A stretch of 64,000 nt of DNA, from positions 212-64,211 of the IMG/VR virus record IMGVR_UViG_3300031354_000002, one strand, 5' to 3'. The notes under the pieces were generated by a model. That model was given only the letters and a program-made list of their open reading frames with translations, was not told the origin of the DNA and searched no databases. How positions within the stretch are numbered: position 1 is the first letter of the stretch; the number at the start of each line of letters is the position of its first letter. The position numbers and the translations under genes are program-made. Below, in pieces: positions 7,412 to 45,952 of the stretch. This DNA comes from a virus (Duplodnaviria > Caudoviricetes).

Positions 7412-8755
7412 CTAGAACGGCATATTGCTCGGTTCCCTGAGATCAGCCAGCTTGGTTAGAGCATTTCGCTCTTCAGTTCCAAGGTTGGAGTATATTCTCA
7501 GGAACATGGTCGCCTGATCATAGTCCTCTCTCCAGTGCATCTTGTTCGGGTCAAATCCGCCCCATCCAATATCCGCGAGCACGTATCTCTTCAGCGCGTC
7601 CATAGGCTCGAAGTATATTGTGTTCGGCTGAGTAACAGGGTCAACCACCATGGAGATGGCTCCATTCTGGCTGAACGAAAGTTTCTCGTATCCGCCCATG
7701 AGCTGCCCTGCGCTATACCTGATATCCGGGGCCATCAATCCATAGTACTTCCGTCTCTGGCCGATACCCATCCGGATAAGCCCAACAGTATTCTGTGACC
7801 GAGCTGCGGTCATATCTACTGCGGCAAGCATAAGGTCTATTGACAGATCCCTTGGTACTCCGCTGTTGCTCATTATATTGGCCTTGAACTCGGGGTCATT
7901 GGCGATGGTAATACCTTCGTATGTAGCAAGGTTGGTCCCATCGTCGTATGCAGCCTCAAGTCCTGCCAACTCATAATTGGCATTGGATGTTGCGTGCGCA
8001 GCAAGCCTTGCCCCGTACCGGACCACGAAAGATCCTGAAGCTATTGTTTCAGCCGCGATTGTATAGGTTCTGGCTGCTGACAAGGGGTGGTATGCCTGAT
8101 AGGCAGAACCACCTGCCCCAGCGGCTGAAACAGCTTCCATCTCGGCAGTTTTGTTGATAGGATCTATCGAAGAGATCCTCGACGCGACAGCACCTTGGTC
8201 GATAGCAGTACTGTTGTAGAAGTCAACTACCATACCTTTTTTGAGGTATCTGACTCCTCTGTCGTTGTTACAGGTTATTGTCCATGTAGCAGAAGTAGAC
8301 AGGGTGTCTGAGGTAGTGGACAGTGTTGCAAGCAACCCATACCCGTCTCCGTGACACTGCCTGTTGAGGTCGCTGACAAGGGAATTGTACGCGTTCTGCG
8401 TCGCGTCGGTCTGGGCATCCACGAAGGAATCCAGATCCGCCTTGCCAGCTTCCATAGCGAGACCGGAAAGTCGCACTACGGCATAATTAAGTTTCGGCGT
8501 GATGACCCCCTGTACGCCGTCTCCGGACAGAGGCTCAGGCAAATATGCGTTCTCGGCGCGGCCACCAACTCCCTCAACATCCGCCTGCCTTGCTGAGAAG
8601 TAGAAGCCTGCCCCGCCTGTTCTGAACTTGGCCTTTCTGGCCGAGGTCTGGAACAGGTTATATGTCATAATCTGCCGTGGAAAAATGTCGGTGATCATAT
8701 CACCATACGTACGTTTGAACTGGTACGCCAATGCTGTGGTATCTAATTGTCCCAT
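7412..8755 (-). CDS. Major capsid protein (HK97 fold, P22/epsilon15-like)
   Basis: 447 aa, follows portal and scaffold; GVGGRAENAYLP, DLNRQCHGDG and C-terminal RNALTKLADL patterns typical of this capsid group. Confidence 0.8.
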   Translation of the reverse strand: MGQLDTTALAYQFKRTYGDMITDIFPRQIMTYNLFQTSARKAKFRTGGAGFYFSARQADVEGVGGRAENAYLPEPLSGDGVQGVITPKLNYAVVRLSGLAMEAGKADLDSFVDAQTDATQNAYNSLVSDLNRQCHGDGYGLLATLSTTSDTLSTSATWTITCNNDRGVRYLKKGMVVDFYNSTAIDQGAVASRISSIDPINKTAEMEAVSAAGAGGSAYQAYHPLSAARTYTIAAETIASGSFVVRYGARLAAHATSNANYELAGLEAAYDDGTNLATYEGITIANDPEFKANIMSNSGVPRDLSIDLMLAAVDMTAARSQNTVGLIRMGIGQRRKYYGLMAPDIRYSAGQLMGGYEKLSFSQNGAISMVVDPVTQPNTIYFEPMDALKRYVLADIGWGGFDPNKMHWREDYDQATMFLRIYSNLGTEERNALTKLADLREPSNMPF

Positions 8756-12469: not shown

Positions 12470-14035
12470 CTAGTTCATGAAAATTCCAACGTCGAACCTT
12501 TCCTCGGATTTCTCCTTCAGGTCCTGAACCATCTTCGCAAATTCGTCTGCGGCTGCCCTAGACGGGGCGTCAAGCTGCGATCTGATCTGCTCCAGACGCC
12601 GTTCCTCGCGCTCCCTTGCTATTTTCATCTCGTCCAGCCCCACCGGCCTGTCCATGCATATATGGCACGCGCTGTCGAATGGATGCAGCTCCTGCCCATT
12701 CTCCAAGTATTCTCCTGTGAGCTCGTCTGTGCATAGGTCCGGTATTATTCTGATGAAATCCTTGCATGTCCTGTACACCACCAGCATAGGTCTCTCGTCG
12801 GGGTCGTCCGGCAGCATCAGCCGGTTTCTGAATTGCCTGATCTTCAATTCTCGGTTGGGGTCTCCCGGAAGCAAATTCAGGTTTATCTTGCTGCCATACT
12901 TTTCAATTACTTCCGGTCTGGATGCGTAGGCTATAAATTCATCCGCTGTAGAATCCCCCTGTCCTCCGCCCTTGTAGTCCGGCTTTTTGTTGAAACTATC
13001 ATGCCCTACCAGACGCTTGATGTTGCGCCCCAGTATCCCCATTTTCTGTTCGCGCTCAAGTATCCCCTCGGCGATTTTCGGGTCTTCCAGCCTAAGTCCT
13101 ACATTGGCCTTTCCCTTTTCGCACCCATACCACTCAGCGAACAGCACCAGTCGATTGTACTGATCAACCCACCACCATCCTATGTGGAACGGCGCTCCGA
13201 AGCCCCAGTCGAATGTCATGTATAGTGGCACAAATTCCGGTATAGGCCATATCGGGTCGATGATATGCCTTTCGGTGAAGTTGAAGGCCTGCCCGATGAA
13301 TACATCCCATCTTCCGTCCAGCCAAGCCTTGCGCAGAACGGGGTCCTTAATAGACTGCAGCCTCTGCACATATTTTGGGTCGTTATCGCACAGAATTGCG
13401 TTGTCATACACGGTGGATCGAATGAATACCCTAGTAGTTCCGTCGTCCAGCTTGTATATTTCGCTGTCGCCCACGGGACTCATCCCGCCATCTACTTCTG
13501 GTATATACATCTGTTTGGCCTGCGAAGCGCCCGATCCTCCGGGGTTCCCGGTCAGGAACATCCGGCACGGCACCCCATGTGGGGACCTTAAACACCCCTT
13601 CATCCGGTCTATCAACTGCCCTATGAAAGGTATCGTCGGGGCCTCATCGATGGTAATTTCCGTGTACTGGTGCCCCTGAAATGCATCTGCCATCTCAAGC
13701 TTAAGGATAGCCGCCAGAACTATCACAGCTCCTGTGGCGGGGCCATCCGTAAACCTGACATAGTTTGTCTGATTCTCTCCTCCGACCCGTATCGCGGGCA
13801 TTCCCTGAGCTATCAGCTCATCAAATCTCCTACGGACCTCGGCCAAGTCCTTGTACTTACGTCGTATGAATAATCCATTCCAGTGCGGCCCATACCTCTC
13901 GGCCCCGCGCACTTGGCGCCCTATCGCGGTATCGCTCTTGCCTCCACCTCTTGTTCCACCATAGAAGGTTTCGTCGGCGGGGCACGTCGCTGCCGCAGCC
14001 TGAGGTCCTATTTGCGGGGTCCAGTATGGCATCAT
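12470..14035 (-). CDS. terL: Terminase large subunit
   Basis: Walker A YGGTRGGGKS, Walker B ITIDEA, coupling motif LTGNPGG, nuclease DWG ... HPFDSACH. Confidence 0.92.
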   Translation of the reverse strand: MMPYWTPQIGPQAAAATCPADETFYGGTRGGGKSDTAIGRQVRGAERYGPHWNGLFIRRKYKDLAEVRRRFDELIAQGMPAIRVGGENQTNYVRFTDGPATGAVIVLAAILKLEMADAFQGHQYTEITIDEAPTIPFIGQLIDRMKGCLRSPHGVPCRMFLTGNPGGSGASQAKQMYIPEVDGGMSPVGDSEIYKLDDGTTRVFIRSTVYDNAILCDNDPKYVQRLQSIKDPVLRKAWLDGRWDVFIGQAFNFTERHIIDPIWPIPEFVPLYMTFDWGFGAPFHIGWWWVDQYNRLVLFAEWYGCEKGKANVGLRLEDPKIAEGILEREQKMGILGRNIKRLVGHDSFNKKPDYKGGGQGDSTADEFIAYASRPEVIEKYGSKINLNLLPGDPNRELKIRQFRNRLMLPDDPDERPMLVVYRTCKDFIRIIPDLCTDELTGEYLENGQELHPFDSACHICMDRPVGLDEMKIAREREERRLEQIRSQLDAPSRAAADEFAKMVQDLKEKSEERFDVGIFMN

Positions 14036-15727: not shown

Positions 15728-15851
15728 CACCATCTCCATACCCCCACTGTAGCGCCGGGACCACACTCTCCCGAAGGTCATAACCCACTTGCCATTTGGG
15801 TACCAGCGAAGGCCCGCGTCCGACGGGGCTTTCCGGGGCTTGAGCTATAAA

Positions 15852-15977
15852 TGTGTCTCCTCGCCACATTGTGGTCCCGGAACCACAATTGAGGAATTGT
15901 CGAACCCGGACCCAGCGCCCAAGGCCCGCGTCCGACGGATATACCGAACGTCCGTTCGGGCTGGCACGAGGCTTGCA
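15852..15977 (+). promoter_or_regulatory. sigma54 promoter P1 with paired upstream palindromes and GC hairpin
   Basis: TGGCACG-AGGC-TTGCA at 15962-15977; TGTGGT-N6-ACCACA at 15870-15887; inverted degenerate copy at 15852-15868; CGTCCGACG core at 15929-15937. Confidence 0.8.
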
Positions 15978-16049
15978 TTTTTTAAAGGTGGGTGGCGGGG
16001 TGCCACTCGGGGCGCCGGGCCTGAACCCGGCCAGCAAGGAGGAAACGAC

Positions 16050-16925
16050 ATGACAGCAAACGCATTAGCAACAGAAGCAAGGATGACAGGCAAGGTGGCC
16101 GGGCGCGGAATGAGCGTCGAGTCTGCCCTGAAGGCAATTCCGAAGGTCGAAGAGCGTCCGGTCTACTTCGGGGATGACACCAGCAGGCGCCGGATCGAAA
16201 TCAAGGGCCAGAAGGCTCTGATCAACCCGGAGACCGAGGAAGTCTTCAGTATCGTCACCGACGATTACCAGCTCATCCGACACGAGCAGGTGATCGAAAT
16301 GGCCGAAAGCGTCGTGGACGAAATGACCGAATACGGCAAGCCGGAACGCCGGGTATGGCTCCCGCAGGACGGTGCGAAAATGAGACTGCAGTACACATTC
16401 CCGGAGGCGGCAATGACCGTCGCGGGAGACACCGACGGCGGGCGCGGAATCGCACCAAGCTTTGATGCTTTCAATAGCCTTGATGGATCGATCGCGCTCC
16501 GGGCGATCTTCGGGGCATACCGGATAATATGCAGTAATGGGATGACGGTCGGCACGAAGGAGATCGAATACCGTCGCGAACATCACCAGCCGATGGATGG
16601 CACCCACGACATGAAAGCAATGATCATCGTCGGGATGAAGCGATTCAGTGATCAGGTTGGCATCTGGGAAAAGTGGGTTGACCGGGTGACCACACTAGCC
16701 GAATACGAGAACATCGTCACCGGACTCAAGCTCAACAAGACACAGACCGAGGACCTTCACCGCGAGGTCGAGGTCTCATCCGGGGTCCGGCTTGAGGACC
16801 AGAAACTGCAGGCGATAACCTTGTGGGCTTTCTACAACATCGTTACCCAGTTCATCACGCACCGGATCGAGAATCAGGTAGTCCAGCAGAGGATGATGGG
16901 GCGCGTCAGGAGACTTTTCCACTAA
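16050..16925 (+). CDS. DUF932/DUF945-family protein
   Basis: KALINPETEEVFSIVTDDYQLIRHEQV...NSLDGSIALRAIFGAYRIICSNGM...H; RBS AAGGAGG before the ATG at 16050. Confidence 0.8.
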   Translation: MTANALATEARMTGKVAGRGMSVESALKAIPKVEERPVYFGDDTSRRRIEIKGQKALINPETEEVFSIVTDDYQLIRHEQVIEMAESVVDEMTEYGKPERRVWLPQDGAKMRLQYTFPEAAMTVAGDTDGGRGIAPSFDAFNSLDGSIALRAIFGAYRIICSNGMTVGTKEIEYRREHHQPMDGTHDMKAMIIVGMKRFSDQVGIWEKWVDRVTTLAEYENIVTGLKLNKTQTEDLHREVEVSSGVRLEDQKLQAITLWAFYNIVTQFITHRIENQVVQQRMMGRVRRLFH

Positions 16926-16992
16926 ACCAATCAAGGGCCGGGGTCCGGGGCCGAAACCGGACCACAGGAAGAAACCATGGCCCAAGCAGGGA

Positions 16993-17119
16993 TGTGGCGA
17001 GGGGACCACACCGGATGTGGCGGGAGAACCACAATCATAGCACAAACGGTAACTGAAGAGGCGAAAGCCCGCGACGGACGCGGGTCTTCGCTTTAATCCG
17101 TTGTGGCACGCGCCTTGCA
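16993..17119 (+). promoter_or_regulatory. sigma54 promoter P2 with paired upstream palindromes and GC hairpin
   Basis: TGGCACG-CGCC-TTGCA at 17104-17119; TGTGGC-N6-ACCACA at 16993-17010 and 17016-17033; hairpin at 17061-17091. Confidence 0.85.
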
Positions 17120-17234
17120 TTTCTTTTAGGTATAGGGCCGATGGCCCAATATCAACCCATGTTCGGGAGGATGTCATGTCGACAGGCCGGGGAAAGCCCG
17201 GCCACTCTCGACGTACTATTAAGGAGGTGACGCC

Positions 17235-17378
17235 ATGAAATCACTGTTGTTTGCATTTATCGGAATGGACCTGCTGGCGCTGATTGCGCTAGTCTTAGTG
17301 TTCTGCAATTTCGAGAGAATCACCAAGCGGAACATCCAGAGGTGCCGGGAAAGGGGGAGAAACCGTGATATGCGCTAG
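17235..17378 (+). CDS. Small membrane peptide (47 aa)
   Basis: Strong RBS AAGGAGGTGA, hydrophobic N-terminal half; first ORF after P2; hand translation. Confidence 0.55.
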   Translation: MKSLLFAFIGMDLLALIALVLVFCNFERITKRNIQRCRERGRNRDMR

Positions 17379-17562
17379 CATTCAATGCCCCCATTGTGGA
17401 TGCCAAGCGTTTCTTGACCACAGCACTGGACCCGGAGCGTGGTATTGGTGCGACAGGTGCAGGGACTACGTTTGGCACGATAAACGTTCACTAGACAGAA
17501 TTACCAGTCCAGTAAAGGAGGAAAACTATGAGGATGATTACTATAACAAAGACACTTTATAA
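17365..17562 (+). CDS. Small Zn-ribbon protein
   Basis: CPHCG...CDRC. Confidence 0.5.
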   Translation: MICASIQCPHCGCQAFLDHSTGPGAWYWCDRCRDYVWHDKRSLDRITSPVKEENYEDDYYNKDTL

Positions 17563-18199
17563 TTTCGACGACCTCACCGAGGACGCGCAGGAAGAGGCAA
17601 TCCGCGATCATTCATACATCAACATCGGGCATGGATGGTGGGACACAGTGTATGAGGACGCTAAGAATATCCACCTTATAATCGACGAGTTTGACCTTAA
17701 CAGGTTCACGCTGTATGCCAATTTTGTGAAGTCAGGTATTGACACTGTTGATGCTATACTCGCGGAGCATGGCAAGGAAACAGAGACCTACAAAACAGCA
17801 TTGCTCTTCAAGGAGAGGTATACGGCGCGGAAGGGTGAAACACCCACAGACGAGGACCCTGATTTTAGCGACATCGATGTAGAGTTTTTGCGAGCCATTA
17901 ACCGATGCTATTTCTACATGCTAAAGGGTGAGTGGGAATATCTACTGAGCCGTGAAGCCGTAATCGAGACGATCAGGGTCAATGAGTTTGAGTTTGAGGA
18001 AGACGGAAACCTTGCACCCTATTCCATGGCAGAAAGGGAGACAGGAGAAATGTTTACCAACGACTTGCTGACAGGATTGCACAAGATCAATAAGCTAGCT
18101 ACTGTCTCAGAAAGAAACTCACCGAACATCAGGATGCAGGACATTGCATCACTATCAAGTAGGCTTATAGACAGGGTAGGGAAGGGGGATGAGCGATGA
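17528..18199 (+). CDS. Conserved phage early protein of unknown function
   Basis: LYNFDDLTEDAQEEAI...WWDTVYED...EYLLSREAVIETIRVNEFEFEEDG, a recurrent phage family pattern; RBS AAGGAGG. Confidence 0.65.
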   Translation: MRMITITKTLYNFDDLTEDAQEEAIRDHSYINIGHGWWDTVYEDAKNIHLIIDEFDLNRFTLYANFVKSGIDTVDAILAEHGKETETYKTALLFKERYTARKGETPTDEDPDFSDIDVEFLRAINRCYFYMLKGEWEYLLSREAVIETIRVNEFEFEEDGNLAPYSMAERETGEMFTNDLLTGLHKINKLATVSERNSPNIRMQDIASLSSRLIDRVGKGDER

Positions 18200-18396
18200 A
18201 AGCACACATCATATTTTGTAACAATGAGCCTAAGGCAGTAGTATTAGACGATCTGGCCAAGGCCTATACTAAACAGCGCGAATTGCAGGGAGAGGACAAG
18301 CGGAGAGTGATTTCGAAGCACGGGCCTGAATCCTATGACGCTTGTAATTATGACGAGGTGTATTGCTGGCACGTAAGCACTGTAAGCGCAGAATGA
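18196..18396 (+). CDS. Hypothetical protein
   Basis: ATGA overlap with the upstream gene. Confidence 0.55.
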   Translation: MKAHIIFCNNEPKAVVLDDLAKAYTKQRELQGEDKRRVISKHGPESYDACNYDEVYCWHVSTVSAE

Positions 18397-18435
18397 GAGG
18401 TCCGTCGGACGCGGGCCTCGAAAGGAGATTAACAA

Positions 18436-18864
18436 GTGATAGCATACAAGGTAGTAGGGAAGAAGAAAAGGGACTGTAGCAACTGGCTAATACAGACGAG
18501 GAACAGAAAGATTGACAGGCGCAGTATTGCCCGCGAAATTATTCGGTATTACCCGCGCTATCCTAAGGGAAAAATAGTGAAGGCTGTTCCGGATTCGGTG
18601 GGCATTCTCTGTTTCGTCGACACGAACGCTGCCGAGCATTTCATTGGGCAGTACAGGTTAGACGACATGGCTAAGATAGTGTCGGTTCGAGGAGTAGGCT
18701 CCCCGACTTACAGTCCAGCGATTTTCTGGCGGGTCAATGCTTCAATAGATAGACTCTACCTTGACTATAATTCCGACGGCGAAATTTACAAGGGCAGCAG
18801 TCCCGGTGTTTACGCGATTAAACCCAGTGTTGTGGCCTTCGAGGCAGTCGAGGTGCTGGAATAG
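18436..18864 (+). CDS. Hypothetical protein
   Basis: RBS AAGGAG directly after hairpin H4. Confidence 0.6.
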   Translation: MIAYKVVGKKKRDCSNWLIQTRNRKIDRRSIAREIIRYYPRYPKGKIVKAVPDSVGILCFVDTNAAEHFIGQYRLDDMAKIVSVRGVGSPTYSPAIFWRVNASIDRLYLDYNSDGEIYKGSSPGVYAIKPSVVAFEAVEVLE

Positions 18865-18874
18865 GAGAGATGTT

Positions 18875-19090
18875 ATGGCACGGTACAAACTGATACTGAC
18901 GGACGAGGATGGAGTTCTGGTAAACATGTGGACGATCGGGACCGAACTGGACTTCGATGTCGAGGACTTGAAGGCCGAAGGTGAGTGCGACAGTTATATC
19001 ACCGAAGAGGACTTCCGGGCCGGGCGTGAATGCGACAACGATTTCAATGTAACAAGGGAGATAGCCATAAATGAAGGATGGAATAAATAG
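18875..19090 (+). CDS. Acidic hypothetical protein (from MARYKL)
   Basis: RBS AGGAG before the ATG at 18875. Confidence 0.55.
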   Translation: MARYKLILTDEDGVLVNMWTIGTELDFDVEDLKAEGECDSYITEEDFRAGRECDNDFNVTREIAINEGWNK

Positions 19091-19691
19091 GATAAGTGAT
19101 CGTAAATACGTGGCCCACTTGAGGCTTGGTGTAGTTCCCCCGCTTCCGCCGGAGATCGCTACTTGGGGAGGGAGAATTAGCCATTATTCGGATAACATGA
19201 AGTATCGCTATAAAGCTAATGATCTAGGAGCATGGTGCATAGTCGATCTGAACTGGACCAAGGTGCTATCAGAATTTATCGGCGGAAAACGAGTTCTTGA
19301 AATTATGGCGGGCCGGGGCTGGATTGCTAAGGCCCTGTCCGAATTTGGGGTTAATATAAAGGCCACTGACAATTTCGAATCTAGCTGGAAGCACAACCGT
19401 ATGAAACTGGTGCATGAAGTAGAAAGAGCATCTGCTATCAAGGCAGTTAGAAGGTTCGGGGATTGGGCAGACATACTGCTGGCATCGTGGCCCCCGTATG
19501 ACAATCCTTCCTTCGAGGCTGCATGCAGGCATTGGGGAGGCCCAGTCATATACATAGGGGAAATGTTCGGGTGTACAGCCACTGAATATTTTTGTGGAAA
19601 TTTTGAAGTGGATGAGAGCGCACCGCGTATTCCAATGCTGTCTTGGCCGGGAATTCACGACGGTGTTTATATAGGAACCTTTTGTGGATGA
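19071..19691 (+). CDS. Class I SAM-dependent methyltransferase-like protein
   Basis: Motif I VLEIMAGRGWIA, KATD at strand 2, ILLASWPPY, IYIGE. Confidence 0.65.
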   Translation: MKDGINRISDRKYVAHLRLGVVPPLPPEIATWGGRISHYSDNMKYRYKANDLGAWCIVDLNWTKVLSEFIGGKRVLEIMAGRGWIAKALSEFGVNIKATDNFESSWKHNRMKLVHEVERASAIKAVRRFGDWADILLASWPPYDNPSFEAACRHWGGPVIYIGEMFGCTATEYFCGNFEVDESAPRIPMLSWPGIHDGVYIGTFCG

Positions 19692-19695
19692 GATA

Positions 19696-19822
19696 TGTGG
19701 TACCGGAACCACACCAATGTGGCAAGGGAACCACACCTGCAGCAATTAGCGTTAATGGCAGAGCCGAAGGTGCCCGTCCGACGCGGGCCTTCGTTGAAAT
19801 GGGTTATGGCACGGAACTTGCA
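19696..19822 (+). promoter_or_regulatory. sigma54 promoter P3 with paired upstream palindromes and GC hairpin
   Basis: TGGCACG-GAAC-TTGCA at 19807-19822; TGTGGT-N6-ACCACA at 19696-19713 and TGTGGC-N6-ACCACA at 19718-19735; hairpin at 19765-19793. Confidence 0.85.
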
Positions 19823-19849
19823 TTTCTTTTAGGTAGGAGGTTTTGATAC

Positions 19850-20098
19850 ATGGATGACAGAGAGAAGAGCGGAAGGATTTTGGTGGTGCGCAACATGGGC
19901 GAGGCGCTGAGGATGGGGCTAACCACTGTCCCGATAATCCGGCCAGACATTGAGCCGAGGCCAGCACCCGCGCCCAAGGTTAAAGTGGTTGCGCGCGTGC
20001 ACCATCAGGGAAACAAGGAGAAGGAGCGCCGACGTCGGCAGATGGAAAGGAACCGTATTAAGGCAGAGAAGCGTCTGCAGAAAGCGAGGGAGGAATGA
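19850..20098 (+). CDS. Basic hypothetical protein
   Basis: RBS AGGAGG; first ORF after P3. Confidence 0.6.
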   Translation: MDDREKSGRILVVRNMGEALRMGLTTVPIIRPDIEPRPAPAPKVKVVARVHHQGNKEKERRRRQMERNRIKAEKRLQKAREE

Positions 20099-20469
20099 CA
20101 TCGAGGAAAGAAAGGATAGAGTTATTGCGGCTGTCCGTACAGAAATGGAGTAAGATTGCTGTTGGGCTGGGCTGTGATAATATGTCGGATAATTGCGAAC
20201 TGTGCCAGCACTGTAGCTGGGACTGCGAACTATGCCAGCACTATGGCTGGGACTGCGGGGCTAATAGTCGGAAGAATCGATGTCCTGTGTTTGAGTATAC
20301 CGGCATGGAAGGATGCGTAGGATCGCCGTGGGAAGAATGGAGAGACCATCAGGTATGTGCTCACGGGCGTGCTATTCCTTACTGGGCCGAGTGCGGAGAG
20401 TGCCGGGAACTGGCCAACAAGGAACTGATGTTCCTGCAGGGACTGTTGGAGGTAGAGCTAGAAGAATGA
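20095..20469 (+). CDS. Cys-rich hypothetical protein with an internal 30-nt tandem duplication
   Basis: CELCQHCSWD/CELCQHYGWD encoded by repeat units starting at 20194 and 20224. Confidence 0.6.
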   Translation: MTSRKERIELLRLSVQKWSKIAVGLGCDNMSDNCELCQHCSWDCELCQHYGWDCGANSRKNRCPVFEYTGMEGCVGSPWEEWRDHQVCAHGRAIPYWAECGECRELANKELMFLQGLLEVELEE

Positions 20470-20706: not shown

Positions 20707-20735
20707 TTGACAAGGCTGCTCCTACATGATAAAAT
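20707..20735 (+). promoter_or_regulatory. Consensus sigma70 promoter
   Basis: TTGACA-N17-TAAAAT with extended -10 TG, just upstream of the RBS GGAGG of ORF 20757. Confidence 0.8.
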
Positions 20736-20756: not shown

Positions 20757-21254
20757 ATGTCTAAAAAATACGTTAATGAGTTATTAGAAAGGCCGGAAAT
20801 CGGCGAGGCGCTGGTCCGTGCTCTGAGCCTCTCAGCCCTGAAAAACGAAATGGAAGCGATGACAAAGGGCGAGGACAAGGATGAGCATACTACCGTTTTC
20901 ACTAACCTGACTTTCCCAAAAATCCTGTACGACGCTCTGGAGGAGGTATCCGAAATATACCTCGAAAACTGCAAAGAGTGTTCAGTGTTCGCTGTCTGCC
21001 CAGAGGGTAGAAAGGTCACTACCAAGGAAGAGGCGTTCGGCAAACTAATCCACCTTCTGGTCCATATGGTTGTTATGGCTGCCGTCAGGAGAGAAGCCAT
21101 GGAAGCAGCAGGACTCGGCGGGGGCTTTGGCCCTTCTGTAAAAATAGTTGACAACATCGATGATCTGCCCGAAGGGATGCCCGAAGAGATGAAAGAAAAG
21201 ATCATCGAGCTTATGGAAATGGGAGAGAAAGGAGGCGGAGAAACATGCCATTAG
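20757..21254 (+). CDS. Hypothetical helical protein
   Basis: 165 aa, RBS GGAGGA. Confidence 0.65.
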   Translation: MSKKYVNELLERPEIGEALVRALSLSALKNEMEAMTKGEDKDEHTTVFTNLTFPKILYDALEEVSEIYLENCKECSVFAVCPEGRKVTTKEEAFGKLIHLLVHMVVMAAVRREAMEAAGLGGGFGPSVKIVDNIDDLPEGMPEEMKEKIIELMEMGEKGGGETCH

Positions 21255-21460
21255 TAGGAGACAACGTTGACTATATGGTCGAGCAGGGCGAAATTTTGAC
21301 CATAATGGTGGACCTCAATAAGGAGTTCGGGAAAAGCGCGTCTGGCAAAACTATAAAGATCGCCAGCACGTGCGGAAACAAGGCTGTCGAAGGAACAGCT
21401 ATTCCGGGCGTAATTATTGGGCTGAATGTCTACAAGTATCCCAATAAGAAAGGAGGATAG
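21245..21460 (+). CDS. Conserved small beta protein of unknown function
   Basis: ILTIMVDLNKEFGKSASGKTIKIAST.GN...IGLNVYK; a pattern recalled from a conserved hypothetical family of anaerobes. Confidence 0.6.
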   Translation: MPLVGDNVDYMVEQGEILTIMVDLNKEFGKSASGKTIKIASTCGNKAVEGTAIPGVIIGLNVYKYPNKKGG

Positions 21461-21566
21461 GATCTGTATCTACTATTCACCTATTTAACCGGGCCTGCTC
21501 TAATTCGGCAGGTCTGGTATGTATCAACATTTTAAGTCCTCAACAGAGGAGAAAGGAAGCTTTTCT

Positions 21567-22124
21567 ATGGCAAACGTAGAACCGACTTTAAAAAAGAATG
21601 ACAGCGCTGGTAAAGTTATCAGCATCACCAAAACCACTAACGCAGACGTACTGTTCGCGCGCTGTACCCGCGAACTGGGCAGGCTCGGAATCACAATCGA
21701 GAATGCGGGCGCGGACAGCGACACTCTGAGATTTGACCTGTCCGGAATACCGATGGCCAAGCGAGGAATGGCCAATTCCCTGCTTATGAACCTTATGATC
21801 AGGGCCTCACGGAGCGTGTCTCACAGTGAGCACCAGTTGACCTACTTCGATCTCAAGCAGGCTGCAGGTCTGGTCCACGACGTTAAGCAGGGCGATGCCG
21901 ACGCCATTAAAATCACTGAGTGTTTCGATAAGGTGATGGACGAGGCCCGCGCCAAGCTGGGAAAGGAGCTTACCAAGTCTGCTCCCAAGCCCGCGCCCAA
22001 GCTCAAACCGAAGGGAAAAAAGACGGCCAACAATAAAAGTGGCTCCGCCGGAACAGGTGGAGGAGGAAAGAAGGGCAAGAAAAAGGCCGCTAGTCTTGCC
22101 CCAAGCAGCGCAGCCGCAGAATAG
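21567..22124 (+). CDS. Hypothetical protein with a Lys-rich (histone-like) C-terminal tail
   Basis: KPAPKLKPKGKK...GGKKGKKKAA; start taken at MANVEP. Confidence 0.6.
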   Translation: MANVEPTLKKNDSAGKVISITKTTNADVLFARCTRELGRLGITIENAGADSDTLRFDLSGIPMAKRGMANSLLMNLMIRASRSVSHSEHQLTYFDLKQAAGLVHDVKQGDADAIKITECFDKVMDEARAKLGKELTKSAPKPAPKLKPKGKKTANNKSGSAGTGGGGKKGKKKAASLAPSSAAAE

Positions 22125-22572
22125 CGACGGCCCTACTACCCTTGAGCAGTGGGACGAATGGGACTTGAATACCCTGTTCCGCTGCGAGGGTTTTAATGCC
22201 AGACTTACCAAGTATGGATGTGTTGCTAACCAGTGTGCCGGGCTTCGCGCGTGGAACATGCTTGCAGAGGGAGTCCCGTTCGGGATAGTTGAAAATTCAG
22301 ACCTAGACAGGCTGTTTGTGTGCGGGCCTTGCCCGGTATCCGCGCTGGATGAGGTTGATCTAGCAATACTGAAGGACATTCTGCGCCGGGAATTGGACAG
22401 CGTGGCCCAGAGATTACAGAACATGAACTGGGACAGGTTCGACTCTGAGGTCAGTGATATTAAGAAGAAGAAGCGCGCGGCTGAATACCGCAAGAAGAAT
22501 AAGGAATGGCGCAGAGAATATATGCGAGTTTGGCGCTACAAAACCAAAGGATCAATACCAGACGATATGTGA
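22039..22572 (+). CDS. Hypothetical protein with Cys motifs and a basic C-terminus; start uncertain (TTG at 22165 possible)
   Basis: FRCEG...GCVANQC...VCGPC; last ORF before a terminator. Confidence 0.5.
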   Translation: MAPPEQVEEERRARKRPLVLPQAAQPQNSDGPTTLEQWDEWDLNTLFRCEGFNARLTKYGCVANQCAGLRAWNMLAEGVPFGIVENSDLDRLFVCGPCPVSALDEVDLAILKDILRRELDSVAQRLQNMNWDRFDSEVSDIKKKKRAAEYRKKNKEWRREYMRVWRYKTKGSIPDDM

Positions 22573-22614: not shown

Positions 22615-23502
22615 CTAAGTCAGATTGAATGGTAAATACTCGCACTGAAACCCGGCTGCCCCCTTATGCCCACCCCCACCATGTTTCTTCGCCACTGACG
22701 AAACATCAATATCATCCCTGTCGGAATATAGGGATACTGTCCATTTTCCCTTACGCCACCCAAAAGTAAGCATGGCATCATATTTTTGGCTGTCCCAAAC
22801 AGAATTAAATAGCTGCGAGTTGGTGAGCATCTTATTGATTGCGATACATTTCAGACCATCCAGCTCTGTTTCGAAGGCGCAGGCAGAACAGTATTTTTCA
22901 TTTTCGGCTAATTGATATTTTAGTATTGTTCCGCCAATTTCGGTAATTCTCTGGACCTCTTCCACATCAAATAAGGAGTTCCAAAAATCCTGATTATCCG
23001 GCCATGTATTGGGCTGCTGTCTCATCCCGTATTGGAACGAAAGAGTTCTTGGGTCGGAATGGTTCCACACGTCATACTCAGCGAGAAGCTTTATAAAAGT
23101 GGGGAGATCACTTTCGGATGAAATATTTTGAAAATCTTCAGTGTAAAAATGCCCCAGGGATTTAAGATATTCCCATGTATATTCCCATGTTAAGGCACAG
23201 GCTCCTATACCATCCCTTTGTAATCCATAGAATTTATTTCCGTAAACTTCAGATTCTTTAATCGCTGATATGTGGTGATCTATCCAGATCAACGTTCCAC
23301 AGGATTGATTTAACCTCAACATTCCTTCAAAAGGTTGAATGGAAAAATCAACCATAAAGATTAATTCATCAGGCCCTATATCGTCCCATGGAAATTCGTC
23401 TCCATAATTGATCCCTATCATATCGCATTCAGGAAATGCCATTTTAATTATTGCTCCAGAACAATGACCGTCCAAGTCCGCTGAGTGATAAAAACATTTC
23501 AT
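22615..23502 (-). CDS. DHH/DHHA1-family phosphoesterase
   Basis: HSADLDG, VDFS, WIDHH, GGGGHKGAAGF motifs; visibly AT-richer than its flanks. Confidence 0.88.
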   Translation of the reverse strand: MKCFYHSADLDGHCSGAIIKMAFPECDMIGINYGDEFPWDDIGPDELIFMVDFSIQPFEGMLRLNQSCGTLIWIDHHISAIKESEVYGNKFYGLQRDGIGACALTWEYTWEYLKSLGHFYTEDFQNISSESDLPTFIKLLAEYDVWNHSDPRTLSFQYGMRQQPNTWPDNQDFWNSLFDVEEVQRITEIGGTILKYQLAENEKYCSACAFETELDGLKCIAINKMLTNSQLFNSVWDSQKYDAMLTFGWRKGKWTVSLYSDRDDIDVSSVAKKHGGGGHKGAAGFQCEYLPFNLT

Positions 23503-24434: not shown

Positions 24435-25352
24435 TTATCCATTTTCCGTCCCATCTTCCTTCTCCTCGGCCACAGCCATCATCAACCGGGCAAAGGCCCT
24501 GCCCAAGTGGTCAAGCTCCCGGTTCCCGGCCCGGTAGGCTGTTATGTGGCCCACGGCGTGATTGAGGTGATCCTCTATCGGAAGTTCCCGCCAGCCATCA
24601 GGTTCATGGTCCTTTAATCCGTCGTGCATGATACCCGCCAGACATAGCATAGCCTTGGGGTCGATCAGATCGAACCGGTATGGACGCAGTGATTGAAGAC
24701 TGTCCCGTTCGTGGCTATCCCACTCTTTGTCCGCACGAAATGTTTCCTTGATATCAGAGTTCCCACAGGACGGGCATGCTATAAACGGATGATTTGCGTG
24801 TTCCTCTACTGGCCGCTCAATCGCCCAGCCACAAGCTCCGCACTCTACCCTGACCATCATTGCTTCCTTAGTCTTATCAGGTTCTTTTGTAATCCAGCGC
24901 TCGGCTTGTAGTCCGTTCAGCCCTTTGGCTTTCCATATACCCACCAGCTTCTTCATTCTTTTCTCTATATACTCAGTTGCCCCTGCTCCACGGAGATCTC
25001 TGCCGACAATACATTCTCTGACGAAGAAGTATTCTCCATCGTGCTTATTGACATTCTTTCCTCCGGGATTATCTGTCCAAAAAATTACCTGATAACAGCT
25101 TAGAGCATCGTTTGTATTAGTTATTATCCCCTTGACAGGAACGGCAAACAGATATCTATTGTATACAGTTACTCCCATGCCGATGTTACTGGGGTCGGCT
25201 ACTAGTTTATCCTCCATTCGTTTCCTCCCTATTGTCATAATTTGGGCAGCACTCCCGCCACTCAGTCCGGGAATGCTGCCTTCACCCAAGGCAAGGCAGG
25301 GGACCGCCCCCCACCAAAATTTCATTATACCACGTCGGGCGCTCCTTGCCAA
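24435..25352 (-). CDS. Multidomain protein: unknown N-terminus, Zn ribbon, and C-terminal dATP/dGTP diphosphohydrolase (DUF5664-like) domain; start may be 25217
   Basis: CGACG...CPSCG; C-terminal RFDLIDPKAMLCLAGIMHDG.KDHEPDGWRELPIEDHLNHAVGH...DHLGRAFARLMM. Confidence 0.7.
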   Translation of the reverse strand: MARSARRGIMKFWWGAVPCLALGEGSIPGLSGGSAAQIMTIGRKRMEDKLVADPSNIGMGVTVYNRYLFAVPVKGIITNTNDALSCYQVIFWTDNPGGKNVNKHDGEYFFVRECIVGRDLRGAGATEYIEKRMKKLVGIWKAKGLNGLQAERWITKEPDKTKEAMMVRVECGACGWAIERPVEEHANHPFIACPSCGNSDIKETFRADKEWDSHERDSLQSLRPYRFDLIDPKAMLCLAGIMHDGLKDHEPDGWRELPIEDHLNHAVGHITAYRAGNRELDHLGRAFARLMMAVAEEKEDGTENG

Positions 25353-25358
25353 TCCCCC

Positions 25359-26915
25359 TTAGAGAATTGCCCTGTCCACTCGCATATCAATCATCTCTTT
25401 GTGCTCTGGCCCTGTCCCGACATAAGCCACTCTCGCCCATCCGCCGTGTTTCTCCAGCGTCTCTACGAAAGCCCTGACTGCCCCAGACATATCGAACCAG
25501 TTGGTCTTCCCGCAATCATCCCAATTCAGGTAGTTCGCGAACTGCATACACAGTAAGTCTGGGCGCGCTACCCGAATAAAATGAGCATATCTCTCCCACG
25601 AGAAGGAGAATACCCGCCTCGGCAGTTTCGTTGTGGTCGTTATCTCACCGAAATTGTCCGGGTCGGGGTGCCCGCAGCCCTTCGCCACGTTCTCCCACTT
25701 CAGCTCGATTGCGTCAGCATATGGCCCGCTGCTTCCAGTCCGGTTATTGACCCGGATCGGGTACGGCCTAAGCACACCATAGATGTGTCCCACCATTTTG
25801 GGCGAGACCCCGGCCTCGGCCATAGCCATGGCTGGATTGATCATCTTGCTTGTACAGTTACCAACAAGAGTGTACCCAAACTGATTTCCCGCAAAGTAGT
25901 TATGATTATCCTCAACCTCTATATTGTATTTTACGCCGTATACTAGGCGAGCCAGCTTTTCAACTCCGGTACATCGCACTGTAGCAAGGCAGTTGGTCCC
26001 CTCTAAACTATATTCGTTTGTGTACAATAGATCGCCTACCATCAGATCTTTTGCCTCAACTTTTCCCCTTTGGGTATAATACTTGTGACCCCCCGTGCAC
26101 TTAGGAGCTGATTTATCCCCAACGGCTAGATCTGTGTGAACTCTATACCAGTCACCCCCGTGTGGAGTTTTATACCAGTTTATCACTTTTTTGGGTTCAA
26201 GCAAACCTGTGGTACTGTTGTAGGACAGGACCGATGCGGGTATTCTATCTCTAACTAGCTCCTCTATTGGAACTGAGTTACCATTTTCCAAAAGTATCCT
26301 AGTTCCTCTAGCAAAGCAATATCTTGGATCGATGCCGTGCTCTAGGTCTAGGTCGAATCCCTGCGTCATCTCGCACAACACGGTCTCTCTGGAATCTAGG
26401 AGATCATTGATGAAGAATGATACTGGCTCTACTGATACCACTCCCATATCGATAAGCTCTTCGCAGTCACGCGCCAGCGTTATAGTTCCATCTCTCTTCA
26501 TCTTCAGAATCCGCGTCGAGCCGATCCCCTGAAGCGTGGACCCTATATCCGACAAACCGGCCCGCTCCTCATCTCGGATCAGTACATCGGTTATTACTGC
26601 GGCTCTCGGGTCTATGGTTATTCTCTCTAGGTCTATCCCGGTGTCTACTATTTCCTTCCTGAGAAGCCCGGCGTTAATTAGCGATGAAGGACCCAAGTAT
26701 ATCGGGGCGTCGCATCCGACTGCGCTGACCGGAAGGTGGTATGTAACTGTTTTCTTTCCGTCCACCACCACAGTATGACCCGCGTTCGGAGATCCCGCCA
26801 TGACAATAGCCTGAATTTCTTTACTGTATTTCTCCGCCAAGAACGCAGCGAATTTTCCCTTTGCCTCTGAGCCTGCCTGAGCACCACAGACTATGTTAAA
26901 TTTGCCTATCCTCAA
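25359..26915 (-). CDS. purZ: PurZ-family (adenylosuccinate-synthetase-like) N6-succino-2-amino-dAMP synthase with an intein
   Basis: GAQAGSEAKGK (Ser at the PurA Asp13 position), PNAGHT, IGSTLQGIG, CEMTQGFDLD, TTTTKLPRRVF, QFANY, VGTGP; 364 aa after intein removal. Confidence 0.82.
   Translation of the reverse strand: MRIGKFNIVCGAQAGSEAKGKFAAFLAEKYSKEIQAIVMAGSPNAGHTVVVDGKKTVTYHLPVSAVGCDAPIYLGPSSLINAGLLRKEIVDTGIDLERITIDPRAAVITDVLIRDEERAGLSDIGSTLQGIGSTRILKMKRDGTITLARDCEELIDMGVVSVEPVSFFINDLLDSRETVLCEMTQGFDLDLEHGIDPRYCFARGTRILLENGNSVPIEELVRDRIPASVLSYNSTTGLLEPKKVINWYKTPHGGDWYRVHTDLAVGDKSAPKCTGGHKYYTQRGKVEAKDLMVGDLLYTNEYSLEGTNCLATVRCTGVEKLARLVYGVKYNIEVEDNHNYFAGNQFGYTLVGNCTSKMINPAMAMAEAGVSPKMVGHIYGVLRPYPIRVNNRTGSSGPYADAIELKWENVAKGCGHPDPDNFGEITTTTKLPRRVFSFSWERYAHFIRVARPDLLCMQFANYLNWDDCGKTNWFDMSGAVRAFVETLEKHGGWARVAYVGTGPEHKEMIDMRVDRAIL
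25857..26318 (-). mobile_element. Mini-intein (154 aa) in PurZ
   Basis: Starts CFARGTRILLENG (block A), ends YNIEVEDNHNYFA...LVGN followed by Cys+1; removal restores DPRY-CTS; too short for an endonuclease. Confidence 0.88.
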
Positions 26916-27817: not shown

Positions 27818-30457
27818 TTAACCTCCGTATTTCCATTTTTCTGTCTCCCCCCAATTTAGTCCTATCTTAGCATCTACCTTTAGTGGAACTTTCATAAACG
27901 GGGCTACTCCTTCCATTATCTCCATAAATCTCGGCACCACTTCATCCAGTATCTCGTCCTGAATTTCAAATAGCAGCGAGTCATGTACTTGGATTAGTGG
28001 GTAGCAGACATATCCATCATCTATATACCCTCTATACACCGGGACGAGTCGGCCCATAGCTTCCTTTGTTATCCCGGCGGTCCCCATCTGGAATGGGGCA
28101 TTGGTGGCTTGGCGCTCGGCCTCTGCTACAGCACTCCTGCTAGAAGATCGTATGCCGGGAATATACCTTCTTCTTCCCCACATATCGGTCACATAACCGT
28201 ACCGACGGGCCTCTGCGCGGGTTCGGTTAACGAACCGGGCTACCCCGGAATAGGTCTCAAACCACTTGTTGATCAGGTCTTGGCACAGCCACAGAGGCCA
28301 ATCTTTCTCCTTTGCCCCGCCAACTATCATCTCTCGTTGCAATCCCTTGGCCGAGATGTCGTTTAGCACGCCGAACCCGACCCTTTTCGCCGGGTATCGA
28401 TGTTTCATCTCGTCAAGCTGATTAATCGGCAGTTTGAACATGGCCGAGGCGGTCTGGCTATGGATATCCAGTCCGGACCTGAAGATATGAAGCATCCTTT
28501 CATCCCCGCTGCCGTGAGCGCAGCACCTCATGTCTGCCTGACTGTAATCAATTTCCACCAAGTGGCACCCCGGCGATGCAATATACCCGCGCTTTATCTT
28601 TAATCCCTCTTCGCTTCGGACAGGCTGAGCCATCAAGTTCACTGGTTCCCCGGACGACAATCGTCCTGTATCCGTCCGCGTCACGCGAAGATTGGACCTA
28701 ACTCGGTTGTGCTTGTCCACTACCTTGGGTATAACCTCGGCATAACTGGTTCTCAGCTTGTTATAGGATCGATAATCCCTAACCATCTGCACGATTGGGT
28801 GCTTATCCGCCAGACGCGCCAATACTTTCTCGTCCGTGCTCCAGCCAGTATCCGTCTTCTTATATCTCGGCAAATCCAGTTGGTCGTACAGCAGTTTCTG
28901 CATCTGCAGGGGCGATCCCGGATTCACATCCCATCCCGCCTCTGCGCTGATTCTAGACTGCAGTTCGTCTTCCTTGGACTGCAGATAGGCGCCAAACTCT
29001 ACAAAATGCTGCGGGTTAGTGAGGATTCCATACTTCATCATGTCCGCTACCATGGGCACAGCCCGCATGTCGCGCTCGAAAGTGCCGACCATCTCCTCCG
29101 CTTCTATCCGTCTCTTCATTATAGGGTATATCCTGATAGTAGCGTCAGCATCGGAACAGGCGTAAGTTTTGGCCTCTTCCGGGTCTATATCCCCGAGAAA
29201 TCCTTCCTCCATCACCCCCAGCTCATCCTCAACCATCTTTCTCTCGCGTGGATCGAAATTGAGCCAGCGCTTGCGAGGGTCTATATCTCCTTTCTTGGGC
29301 GAAACCATATCGCGCAGAATGCCACTGGTCTTGCGCCCTATATCCTGCGGCTGGCGCTTCTTTGGCACCCCCTGAACAAACTCCAGAACCGGGTCCGGCT
29401 TGGGCCATTTCCGCTCTACCACCTTATGCAAGTAGTCTATTGCTTTGAAATACGTAGCCGGGGCGACCGCTTCTGCATACGATCCCATCTTCATTCCGCA
29501 GTGCCTGAAAGCTAGGGGTTTCAATCCCTGAGGCTCATTCTGCAGAAGGTACGCCACTATCATCGTGTCGAAGGGGCGCGCCGGATGAATCCCCACAGAC
29601 TCCAGTATCCCCAAGTCTGACAATGTATTGTGTATAATGGACACAATATTGGGGCTAGAAACGAACATGTCCAGCGCCCATATCGCCTCGGTATCCTCCC
29701 TCATTATCATGTTGGAAGTTCCCGGCTCGACAGAGAAAGTTATACACCATAGCTCATTGTTGTTGGTATTCCACTCAACATCCACCGCTATAGTACTCCT
29801 ATTGCCCACTGCGCTCAGCACGTCTCCCGCAGTCCGGCATCGGATGTATCTCTCCTTGCCCGCAAACGGATCTTCTATATGCCGAGATGGGCGCTCCTGC
29901 CGTATTATTCCGAACAGACTCTTAAAATCTGCATATACGTTGAGCATGGTCTTGTTGTCGCGCAATCCTGCAGCCACATGATATAGCGGAACTACTATTC
30001 TTCCATTTTTCTGGAAGGGAATGCCGTGCACAGTCTCCATGTCCACGTCGCCCAGTACCCGCCTCGTGCTGAAACCTCCGATAGTGGCTATTATTTGCGG
30101 GTCAACTCTATCTATCTCATAGTCCAGATAGGCTGAGCAAGCATCAATCTCGTCCTTGCGCGGATTCCTGTTTCCGGGAGGCCTGCATTTAATACTATTC
30201 GTGAGATAGACATTCTCGCGCGGACAAGAATTTATGTTGAGGATGTGATCAAGTTCTGCCCCGCCCGCCGCCGAAGGATGGAACGGGGTCCCGTGTCTAT
30301 CCTCAAACTCGCCGGGGGCCTCGGCTATCATCATTATGGCACATTTCTTAGGGCCTTGCCCCCCAACCACGAGGTTTCTGGTCTCGCTAAGCCTGCATAA
30401 AGTGCAGTTCTTATTTAACGGCCTTCCTACCATCTTCCATCCGCAAAGTCGTTCCAA
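27818..30457 (-). CDS. polA: Family A DNA polymerase with an N-terminal family-4 uracil-DNA-glycosylase-like domain and a 3'-5' exonuclease (SPO1-type architecture)
   Basis: UDG: CTLC, AEAPG, TNSIKCRPP, ACS, LYH. Exo: DVEW, HNTLSD, YACSDAD. Pol: TGRLSS, DYSQADMR, RYPAKRVGFG, NAPFQ, QVHDSLLFE. Confidence 0.92.
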   Translation of the reverse strand: MERLCGWKMVGRPLNKNCTLCRLSETRNLVVGGQGPKKCAIMMIAEAPGEFEDRHGTPFHPSAAGGAELDHILNINSCPRENVYLTNSIKCRPPGNRNPRKDEIDACSAYLDYEIDRVDPQIIATIGGFSTRRVLGDVDMETVHGIPFQKNGRIVVPLYHVAAGLRDNKTMLNVYADFKSLFGIIRQERPSRHIEDPFAGKERYIRCRTAGDVLSAVGNRSTIAVDVEWNTNNNELWCITFSVEPGTSNMIMREDTEAIWALDMFVSSPNIVSIIHNTLSDLGILESVGIHPARPFDTMIVAYLLQNEPQGLKPLAFRHCGMKMGSYAEAVAPATYFKAIDYLHKVVERKWPKPDPVLEFVQGVPKKRQPQDIGRKTSGILRDMVSPKKGDIDPRKRWLNFDPRERKMVEDELGVMEEGFLGDIDPEEAKTYACSDADATIRIYPIMKRRIEAEEMVGTFERDMRAVPMVADMMKYGILTNPQHFVEFGAYLQSKEDELQSRISAEAGWDVNPGSPLQMQKLLYDQLDLPRYKKTDTGWSTDEKVLARLADKHPIVQMVRDYRSYNKLRTSYAEVIPKVVDKHNRVRSNLRVTRTDTGRLSSGEPVNLMAQPVRSEEGLKIKRGYIASPGCHLVEIDYSQADMRCCAHGSGDERMLHIFRSGLDIHSQTASAMFKLPINQLDEMKHRYPAKRVGFGVLNDISAKGLQREMIVGGAKEKDWPLWLCQDLINKWFETYSGVARFVNRTRAEARRYGYVTDMWGRRRYIPGIRSSSRSAVAEAERQATNAPFQMGTAGITKEAMGRLVPVYRGYIDDGYVCYPLIQVHDSLLFEIQDEILDEVVPRFMEIMEGVAPFMKVPLKVDAKIGLNWGETEKWKYGG

Positions 30458-31077: not shown

Positions 31078-31337
31078 GCTAATAACCTCTTCCATAACAT
31101 ATTTTTGGTTCGGGTCGCTACGTGTACCCACGGTACTCCCTTGTTTGTCAAAAATTCCTTCCACTGGTCTAGTATCCACATCCCTTCCCCGCTTGTGCTA
31201 GTAGTATCTACCAGACACATGACGTTCGGGTGCTTTCTGAAATCCTCCACTTTGTACTTATCAACGATAGAATCTTCGTCATATACGTTAAGGAAATCTT
31301 GCCCACTAAACATAGTTATTCCCTCCCGGTCTTCCAC
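31074..31337 (-). CDS. Hypothetical protein
   Basis: Packed ORF. Confidence 0.45.
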   Translation of the reverse strand: MEDREGITMFSGQDFLNVYDEDSIVDKYKVEDFRKHPNVMCLVDTTSTSGEGMWILDQWKEFLTNKGVPWVHVATRTKNMLWKRLLA

Positions 31338-35869: not shown

Positions 35870-35942
35870 ATCACTCCTCCTCTATATCTCCCATCGGCGC
35901 CAACCCGCGTCCGACGCGGTTTCTACAAGCCCATCCAGCATA

Positions 35943-44786: not shown

Positions 44787-44816
44787 ATTCTATCATATGA
44801 CGCGACGCCTCGTCAA
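44787..44816 (-). promoter_or_regulatory. sigma70-type promoter driving the structured leader and cassette array
   Basis: TTGACG-N18-TAGAAT with extended TG; the inverted repeat TGACG-N8-CGTCA overlaps the -35 box. Confidence 0.7.
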
Positions 44817-45583: not shown

Positions 45584-45594
45584 GGTAGTTTAGC

Positions 45595-45894: not shown

Positions 45895-45923
45895 AATTGG
45901 CCTCCTTTCGATGTGATGAGACC

Positions 45924-45952
45924 AGTATACAGCGCGAGCCGCACTTCGTCAA
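45924..45952 (-). promoter_or_regulatory. sigma70-type promoter for the regulator operon
   Basis: TTGACG-N17-TATACT with extended TG. Confidence 0.75.

Follow-up and report, generated by a model that had tools for sequence, protein, structure and literature searches.

Three sigma-54 enhancer-promoter units in a complete phage genome share their enhancer motif with bacterial lpxC loci

Sigma-54 promoters controlled from an enhancer are textbook elements in bacteria. To our knowledge, accounts of early and accessory transcription in phages nearly always invoke host sigma-70 or phage polymerases. Here we describe three sigma-54 enhancer-promoter units, P1, P2 and P3, in the genome of a tailed phage represented by the IMG/VR virus record IMGVR_UViG_3300031354_000002. 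The stretch analyzed (the window, 64,000 nucleotides, to which all positions refer) is the 64,211-bp record, rated 100% complete by CheckV, minus its first 211 bases. The units are complete, their architecture is far beyond chance, and their enhancer core recurs directly upstream of lpxC in bacterial genomes.

The described system most like these units is the lpxC circuit of Desulfovibrio. In D. vulgaris Hildenborough, the regulator DVU2934 (annotated as ntrX; its kinase is DVU2931) binds one place in the genome, upstream of lpxC, a gene that is essential and highly expressed (PMC3333781). Orthologues of DVU2934 were noted in Geobacter and Acidobacterium, and in Syntrophobacter the regulator operon comes immediately after lpxC. 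The authors did not find the DVU2934 motif outside Desulfovibrio and suggested that it had diverged (PMC3333781). In D. alaskensis G20, which has the pair Dde_3000/Dde_3003, no gene other than lpxC goes up in the kinase mutant; lpxC carries a sigma-54 site, with the regulator site of Dde_3003, GTGTAAAAAACACACA, centered at -101 of this promoter (PMC4045070). The activator of this family is annotated as NtrX, consists of REC, AAA+ (with GAFTGA) and DNA-binding domains, works with a membrane kinase and has lpxC as its sole known target. In both Desulfovibrio pairs, as in the phage units, a -24/-12 promoter goes together with an activator site that is palindromic and lies ~100 bp before the start (PMC3333781, PMC4045070, PMC4641369). 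Unlike the Desulfovibrio circuit, the phage module is present in three copies, drives phage accessory genes, and has G/C-rich spacers and a GC palindrome but no consensus for integration host factor (IHF).

An initial sequence-only reading of this DNA knew of no description of this architecture in phages; sigma-54 dependence itself has been published for one. Phage YuA of Pseudomonas aeruginosa (Ceyssens et al. 2008, as cited in PMC5053324) depends on host sigma-54, and a sigma-54-like promoter of YuA, P015, has been mapped (bioRxiv 10.1101/2023.10.13.562163). Such dependence is "rare but not unprecedented" (PMC5053324, bioRxiv 10.1101/2023.10.13.562163). YuA is similar in being a lytic phage that lacks its own RNA polymerase and whose program needs host sigma-54. 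The two phages and their host lineages are unrelated, and the accounts of YuA consulted define neither enhancer sites nor a host activator, whereas the units described here have full enhancers, assignable to one particular host regulon.

The promoter core TGGCACG-N4-TTGCA occurs exactly at 15962, 17104 and 19807, and these three copies, all on the + strand, are the only ones in the record. Dinucleotide shuffles of the window contain it 0.03 times on average, and no shuffle reaches three. The boxes match the full extended sigma-54 consensus, YTGGCACG-N4-TTGCW (PMC2725144), and in all three the -24 GG and the -12 GC are exactly 10 bp apart, the spacing of sigma-54 promoters. Downstream of each box is TTT(T/C)TT(T/A)(T/A)AGGT, all 12 nt of which are identical between P2 and P3, and a purine-rich AGG stands at the predicted +1. 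The promoters extend over 15962-15989 (P1, TGGCACG-AGGC-TTGCA with a T-rich melt region and AGGT), 17104-17131 (P2, TGGCACG-CGCC-TTGCA with TTTCTTTTAGGT) and 19807-19834 (P3, TGGCACG-GAAC-TTGCA, again with TTTCTTTTAGGT), all on the + strand. Their predicted starts, at the purine 12 nt past the GC, are near G15988, G17130 and G19833. All three are intergenic and in the same orientation as the genes downstream, whose ATGs, at 16050, 17235 and 19850, would follow leaders of ~62, 105 and 17 nt. In P3 the Shine-Dalgarno sequence AGGAGG is 3 nt downstream of the predicted start.

Two further features touch on the promoters. A CT-rich tract in P3, TTTCTTTT (within 19823-19841), is just upstream of the predicted start and at most 20 nt from the AGGAGG; it would be present in read-through transcripts and absent from sigma-54 transcripts. 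It resembles a CT-rich insulation motif reported at sigma-54 promoters (bioRxiv 10.1101/086108). A fourth, weaker sigma-54-like box, TGGCACATAATATGCT at 35937-35952 (- strand), was rejected: it has no palindromic enhancer upstream and its match is within chance. It is located just upstream of thyX, with a copy of the GC palindrome described below (35902-35921) 15 nt after it.

Upstream of the three boxes, and only there, are five exact palindromes of the form TGTGGY-N6-RCCACA, at 15870, 16993, 17016, 19696 and 19718 (mean in shuffles, 0.01; no shuffle reaches five). Together with a sixth, degenerate site they form pairs 22-23 bp apart whose centers are 81-85 and 103.5-104 bp upstream of the -24 GG, the arrangement of upstream activator sites. 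In P2 the sites are at 16993-17010 and 17016-17033 (+ strand; 23 bp apart, centers 104 and 81 bp upstream of the GG), and in P3 at 19696-19713 and 19718-19735 (+ strand; 22 bp apart, centers 104 and 82 bp upstream). In P1 (+ strand) the proximal site, TGTGGTCCCGGAACCACA (15870-15887), is an exact match centered 85 bp upstream of the GG, and the distal site, TGTGTCTCCTCGCCACA (15852-15868), is centered ~103.5 bp upstream. This distal copy had been taken to be inverted and degenerate; it is degenerate (TGTGT-N7-CCACA), with a 7-nt spacer, and abuts the proximal site, but we would not call it inverted. An additional copy with one mismatch is at 15748-15765. Apart from the orientation of this one copy, the boxes, their fixed geometry and the paired palindromes stand as the sequence-only reading had described them.

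The boxes are conserved where the rest of the units is not. P2 and P3 agree in every defined box, whereas identity over the N positions and flanks is 40-80%: the promoter spacer agrees at one of four positions, the palindromes at 13/18 and 15/18, and the flanks at 40-55%. This invariance of the boxes amid varying N positions and flanks argues for selection on the boxes rather than recent duplication. The layout is like that of glnAp2/NtrC and nifH/NifA, in which tandem dyads 80-150 bp upstream also act on a -24 GG/-12 GC core with the exact 10-bp spacing. These classical promoters work with IHF, however, and the half-sites and their spacing differ: TGT-N10-ACA at nifH/NifA, TGT-N12-ACA in the phage, which has no IHF consensus between enhancer and core.

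The phage itself does not appear to encode the proteins that such units need. Six-frame profile searches of the whole record found no Sigma54_activat domain (PF00158), in agreement with the sequence-only reading, and all 14 of 14 control genomes were positive. The same searches found no Sigma54_DBD, Sigma70_r2 or Fis-type HTH_8, with positive controls for each. No RNA polymerase was found in Pfam and PHROG scans of the ~80 open reading frames (ORFs) of the phage; in a profile search for polymerase with PF00940 the positive control gave no match. Since neither an activator nor a sigma factor is recognizable in the phage, host E-sigma54 and a host AAA+ activator would be required, as had been proposed.

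A search of bacterial genomes for the palindrome upstream of sigma-54 boxes, which the sequence-only reading had suggested as a way to the activator, does point to a candidate, by way of lpxC. We scanned one genome per species, 185,579 species in all, for two TGTGG-N8-CCACA sites 3-7 bp apart followed within 160 bp by a sigma-54 box. The module was found in Geothermobacter hydrogeniphilus, in a Desulfobaccales metagenome-assembled genome (MAG) and in a MAG labeled Clostridia, and in each of them it is directly upstream of lpxC. Other matches of the tandem-site scan (L138 and many in Faecalibacterium and Streptococcaceae MAGs) were discarded as repeats unrelated to sigma-54. In Geothermobacter the two sites are the sole exact TGTGG-N8-CCACA sequences in 3.8 Mb, and the operon behind them (L154, G001:C44:49000-63000) encodes LpxC, a kinase with NtrY_N, HAMP, PAS and HisKA domains, and an NtrX-like activator with REC, AAA+ (GAFTGA) and HTH_8 domains. 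This is the arrangement published for Syntrophobacter (PMC3333781). All four other match genomes tested have orthologues of the kinase-activator pair, at 54-59% identity, with the next paralogue at no more than 48%.

The association with lpxC holds across the phylum of Geothermobacter. Among 401 genomes of that phylum, the pattern site-N55-115-TGGYAY-N5-TTGC was found in 16, against none for the reversed pattern used as a control, and lpxC adjoins 15 of the 16 matches. The same pattern was found in none of 151 genomes of the phylum of a Vicinamibacterales MAG. A second site of the same consensus, for which we had not selected, is present 21-34 bp upstream in 13 of 17 host loci. Altogether the TGTGG-N8-CCACA core and the tandem layout recur at lpxC in 18 genomes, as befits the recognition sequence of an lpxC regulon. 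The Geothermobacter version, from outside Desulfovibrio, has exactly the core and the tandem layout of the phage. Judged from these sequences, the DVU2934-family regulator of Desulfobacterota other than Desulfovibrio appears to have TGTGG-N8-CCACA as its enhancer motif. The candidate named before, a PspF-like protein, received no support. PspF-pspA is likewise a sigma-54 system tied to the cell envelope, but the searches link the palindrome to no psp genes, and wherever a host occurrence could be assigned, it was to lpxC. A signal connected with the envelope is still plausible.

We favor, with moderate confidence, the explanation that the phage units are sigma-54 promoters opened by a host NtrX-type regulator of the DVU2934/Dde_3003 family, which would plug the accessory block of the phage into the lipid-A circuit of the host. 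Because they share the core, the dyad spacing, the tandem phasing and the distance class, the units can be read as copies of the host lpxC enhancer-promoter. Host E-sigma54 would bind P1-P3 as a closed complex. The promoter would open only when dimers of the host AAA+ activator, seated on the tandem TGTGG-N8-CCACA sites ~105 and 128 bp ahead of the start, loop over and hydrolyze ATP. The normal, and apparently sole, job of this NtrX-type regulator and its NtrY-like kinase would be to drive lpxC. Since LpxC catalyzes the committed step of lipid A synthesis, the 4.7-kb accessory block would thus be joined to host lipid-A homeostasis. The phage probably infects one of the Desulfobacterota, or else a lineage that has this circuit too. 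Given that lpxC is an essential gene with high expression, the activator that the phage borrows is probably on in any growing cell, with envelope state tuning it further, and we suspect that sigma-54 control is a dependable, envelope-linked switch more than a rare gate.

Relatives of the phage give a mixed picture, and a survey of them had been proposed as a check. A DNA search against named phage genomes found no match. Two complete relatives, at 56% identity in the large terminase subunit (TerL), have no such promoters, and the genes driven by sigma-54 have no homologues in the relatives' loci. A further relative (L013; 54% TerL identity) does have a box, TGGCATGGTACATGCA, at the syntenic spot, with two TGTGGTGTTTTTACYWCA repeats upstream of it, 31 bp apart. 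These sites are nearly identical to those at host lpxC, and 31 bp is the commonest spacing of the host sites. In more distant relatives (L028/L029 and L038/L044) this place is taken by TGGCACGG-N4-ATGC boxes, and the DNA upstream of them is A/T-rich. No activator gene was found in the records of these relatives.

Several observations weigh against the assignment to the lpxC regulator. The central spacers of the phage palindromes are G/C-rich, whereas those of the host sites are A/T-rich. The proximal site of the phage, at 81-85 bp, is closer to its promoter than most host sites, which range over 66-123 bp and are mostly at 91-123. The published Desulfovibrio site GTGTAAAAAACACACA is similar, not identical, to the phage palindrome. 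No close relative of the phage was found (the best TerL matches are 56% in IMG/VR and 63%, on a 3.4-kb contig, in metagenomes), and its capsid protein has no relatives in the 401 genomes of the Geothermobacter phylum. One contig (L112) has the tandem sites TGTGGAAAAAACTCCACA and TGTGGAAAATTTTCCACA upstream of a sigma-54-like box, in front of a REC gene and an autoregulated REC-AAA+ activator that is 37% identical to that of Geothermobacter. At least this one other activator of the NtrC family apparently uses the same half-sites, and therefore the core motif alone does not fix the regulator. Lastly, the palindrome forms iteron-like tandem sites in some prophage-like records, where it may be read by another protein family.

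The L112 contig and the different composition of the spacers are what speak for a different host protein of the NtrC family that reads TGTGG-N8-CCACA at promoters that are still sigma-54 dependent. We regard this as unlikely, though it deserves to be kept in mind, in view of the 15 of 16 phylum-survey matches that adjoin lpxC, the absence of the motif elsewhere in Geothermobacter, and the L013 sites, which share with host lpxC both their sequence, nearly identical, and the 31-bp spacing.

Other viral contigs also contain the palindrome. A scan of IMG/VR for a site followed by a sigma-54 box gave 69 stretches, by estimate about the chance level for so loose a pattern. Credible among them are the contigs with two exact sites and a sigma-54 box, all viral and unrelated to this phage: L062 and the family of L222/L199/L223/L227/L210/L233. 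In this family the exact sites TGTGGTAAATCGGCCACA and TGTGGTAAATTTACCACA are 20 bp apart, a TGGYAT-N5-TTGCA box follows 50-61 bp downstream, and a conserved Cys-rich ORF of 242-244 aa begins ~78 nt past the box. In seven prophage-like records (L055, L056, L058, L059, L061, L064, L067), tandem TGTGGTAAGAACGCCACA and TGTGGTAGAAACGCCACA lie inside an ORF of 266 aa with no sigma-54 box. Separately, an unrelated 52-kb phage contig, 96% complete and with no PF00158 (L004, IMGVR_UViG_3300033075_001316), has, at 921-1040, two exact TGGCACGATTCTTGCA boxes that diverge from each other and are 100 bp apart.

Tandem TGTGG-N8-CCACA sites in phage-like contigs that have no sigma-54 box raise the question of whether the palindromes here might be operators for a DNA-binding protein of the phage, such as a repressor, an anti-activator or an unrecognized activator, with the sigma-54 core being activated from solution or by a phage factor. 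Most ORFs of the phage have no family match and include small potential DNA binders, one of which, at 45188-45583, has a weak match to HTH_31. All sigma-54 activators known to us are AAA+ proteins, and none is detectable in the six frames of the record. In their position, tandem phasing and core the palindromes match a bona fide host enhancer, and at -105 and -128 they would be poorly placed for direct repression. We therefore consider a phage operator improbable and retain the host lpxC regulator as the preferred reader of these sites.

Between the enhancer and the promoter, each unit has a GC palindrome centered 29-30 bp upstream of the GG. The sequence-only reading had seen in it a hairpin in the place of an IHF site. 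The position holds for all three units; the fold holds for P2 and P3 but not for P1. The P2 copy (17061-17091, + strand), flagged as terminator-like, has a stem of 5+7 bp (-13.2 kcal/mol, z -3.47), and the P3 copy (19765-19793, + strand) reaches -9.4 kcal/mol (z -1.75). In P1 (15922-15960, + strand; core GCCCGCGTCCGACG at 15924-15937; center 30 bp upstream of the GG) the core is kept but the fold is poor and not significant (z -0.57). The P2 and P3 copies, the only ones of the three that fold better than shuffles, each follow a gene, and the P1 copy has no + strand gene upstream. The tails of the hairpins are short (TTTAAT and TTGAAAT), and most loops are 3-5 nt. The core GCCCGCGTCCGACG occurs in ~8 copies genome-wide, on both strands, some of them between genes within operons (18397, 35902 and 39244); the first of these, 18397-18419, is internal to the P2 unit. 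Rfam gave no match within 15-23 kb of the window.

Because a good fold occurs only where there is a gene upstream, and because copies are scattered over the genome, we favor for the GC palindrome the role of a terminator or insulator that would block read-through from the preceding unit. A bending or architectural role in place of IHF is a possible second option. What speaks for this earlier idea is that the consensus WATCAANNNNTTR is absent from the three phage spacers even with one mismatch allowed, unlike an IHF-assisted promoter, whereas an exact IHF consensus is present in 4 of 17 host lpxC spacers (0.08 expected).

Three hairpins in front of three gene groups, most with loops of 3-5 nt, also recall the early promoters of phage N4. 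In that case an injected virion RNA polymerase would read the hairpins, and the sigma-54-like boxes would be incidental. A protein of 2359 aa encoded in the virion module (53105-60184, - strand), which itself matches nothing in Pfam, PHROG or PDB, could be thought of as such an enzyme. We rejected it as an RNA polymerase: its homologues carry polyvalent-protein domains (LPD38, LPD1, ART-PolyVal and InPase) rather than polymerase domains, and no polymerase match was found in PHROG or PDB. It is probably an injected multi-effector protein, and a relative 59% identical to it is present on a 61-kb Logan contig. Moreover, the P1 hairpin does not fold, other copies lie within operons on both strands, and incidental boxes would leave the triple exact match to the 12-base sigma-54 consensus, against 0.03 expected, to coincidence. 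Promoters of the N4 type are thus highly improbable, and the sigma-54 units remain our explanation for transcription of the block.

The sigma-54 units head a + strand block of 4.7 kb (15.8-20.5 kb) that diverges from the terminase operon. P1 precedes a gene for a DUF932 protein of 291 aa (16050-16925, + strand; PF06067, E 1.3e-15). The P2 unit has seven small ORFs (17235-19691, + strand), including those for a 223-aa protein with an antitoxin-like fold as a lead (17528-18199, + strand) and a class I SAM-methyltransferase-like protein (19071-19691, + strand). The P3 unit comprises two ORFs, of 82 and 124 aa, that have no family match (19850-20469, + strand). Beyond it, a near-consensus sigma-70 promoter, TTGACA-17-TAAAAT (20707-20735, + strand), takes over for the next four + strand genes (20757-22572). 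The content of the sigma-54 block resembles the accessory and anti-defense genes that phages and plasmids express on entry. The sequence-only reading took these for early genes, which they may be; the phage also has near-consensus sigma-70 promoters, among them a divergent pair near 45 kb beside a putative helix-turn-helix gene.

The rest of the genome is that of a tailed phage. The late genes occupy the minus strand between 15747 and ~45960, by way of the record ends, and the replication genes, also on the minus strand, run from ~45200 to 22615. The phage encodes a large terminase (12470-14035), a major head protein (7412-8755), an SU10-type adaptor (3402-4280), a holin, an NlpC/P60 lysin (45960-46981), a family A DNA polymerase, a helicase and ThyX. 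Divergent sigma-70-like promoters at 44816 (-), 45213 (-), 45445 (+) and 45952 (-) surround the small ORF with the weak HTH_31 match, and it may be in this cluster (44787-45952) that the actual early or regulatory switch lies. The genes at 5506-6117, 50456-50998 and 30427-31179 (all - strand) include two sulfotransferase-like ORFs and one for a protein with a DnaJ domain.

One other feature of the genome could be connected with the choice of promoter. A PurZ-like homologue of adenylosuccinate synthetase (PHROG 1211, E 1e-46) adjoins a protein with an N-terminal dATP/dGTP diphosphohydrolase domain (PF18909) at 24435-26915 (- strand), and a DHH/DHHA1 protein is encoded at 22615-23502. To judge by this PurZ and MazZ-like pair, the DNA of the phage probably contains 2-aminoadenine (Z). 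Five relatives gave no match to PurZ, and where such PurZ-less relatives have a sigma-54 box at the corresponding position, their spacers are A/T-rich and include an IHF-like site. Z:T pairs would be compatible with ATP-driven melting and with reading through the major groove, but not with A-tract bends or with proteins that bind the minor groove, such as IHF. We can imagine a joint scheme in which a host lipid-A sensor, responding to envelope status or LPS perturbation, gates the accessory and anti-defense genes of the entry phase, the six high-affinity sites per genome copy decoy the regulator away from lpxC during replication, and the sigma-54 core, the G/C-rich boxes read in the major groove and the GC palindrome in place of IHF are adaptations to a Z genome. 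This scheme as a whole is speculative and rather doubtful.

What appears to be new, as read from the DNA, is the assignment of a phage enhancer to a dedicated lpxC regulator, together with a likely motif for that regulator outside Desulfovibrio. Enhancer-dependent sigma-54 needs a signal-controlled host ATPase, and reliance on it reveals a host signal that a phage follows. If the assignment is right, the expression of phage genes would be tied to outer-membrane homeostasis through the LpxC regulator, a concrete connection that is open to test. Matching enhancers to host regulons would also offer a handle, taken from sequence, for predicting the hosts of uncultured phages.

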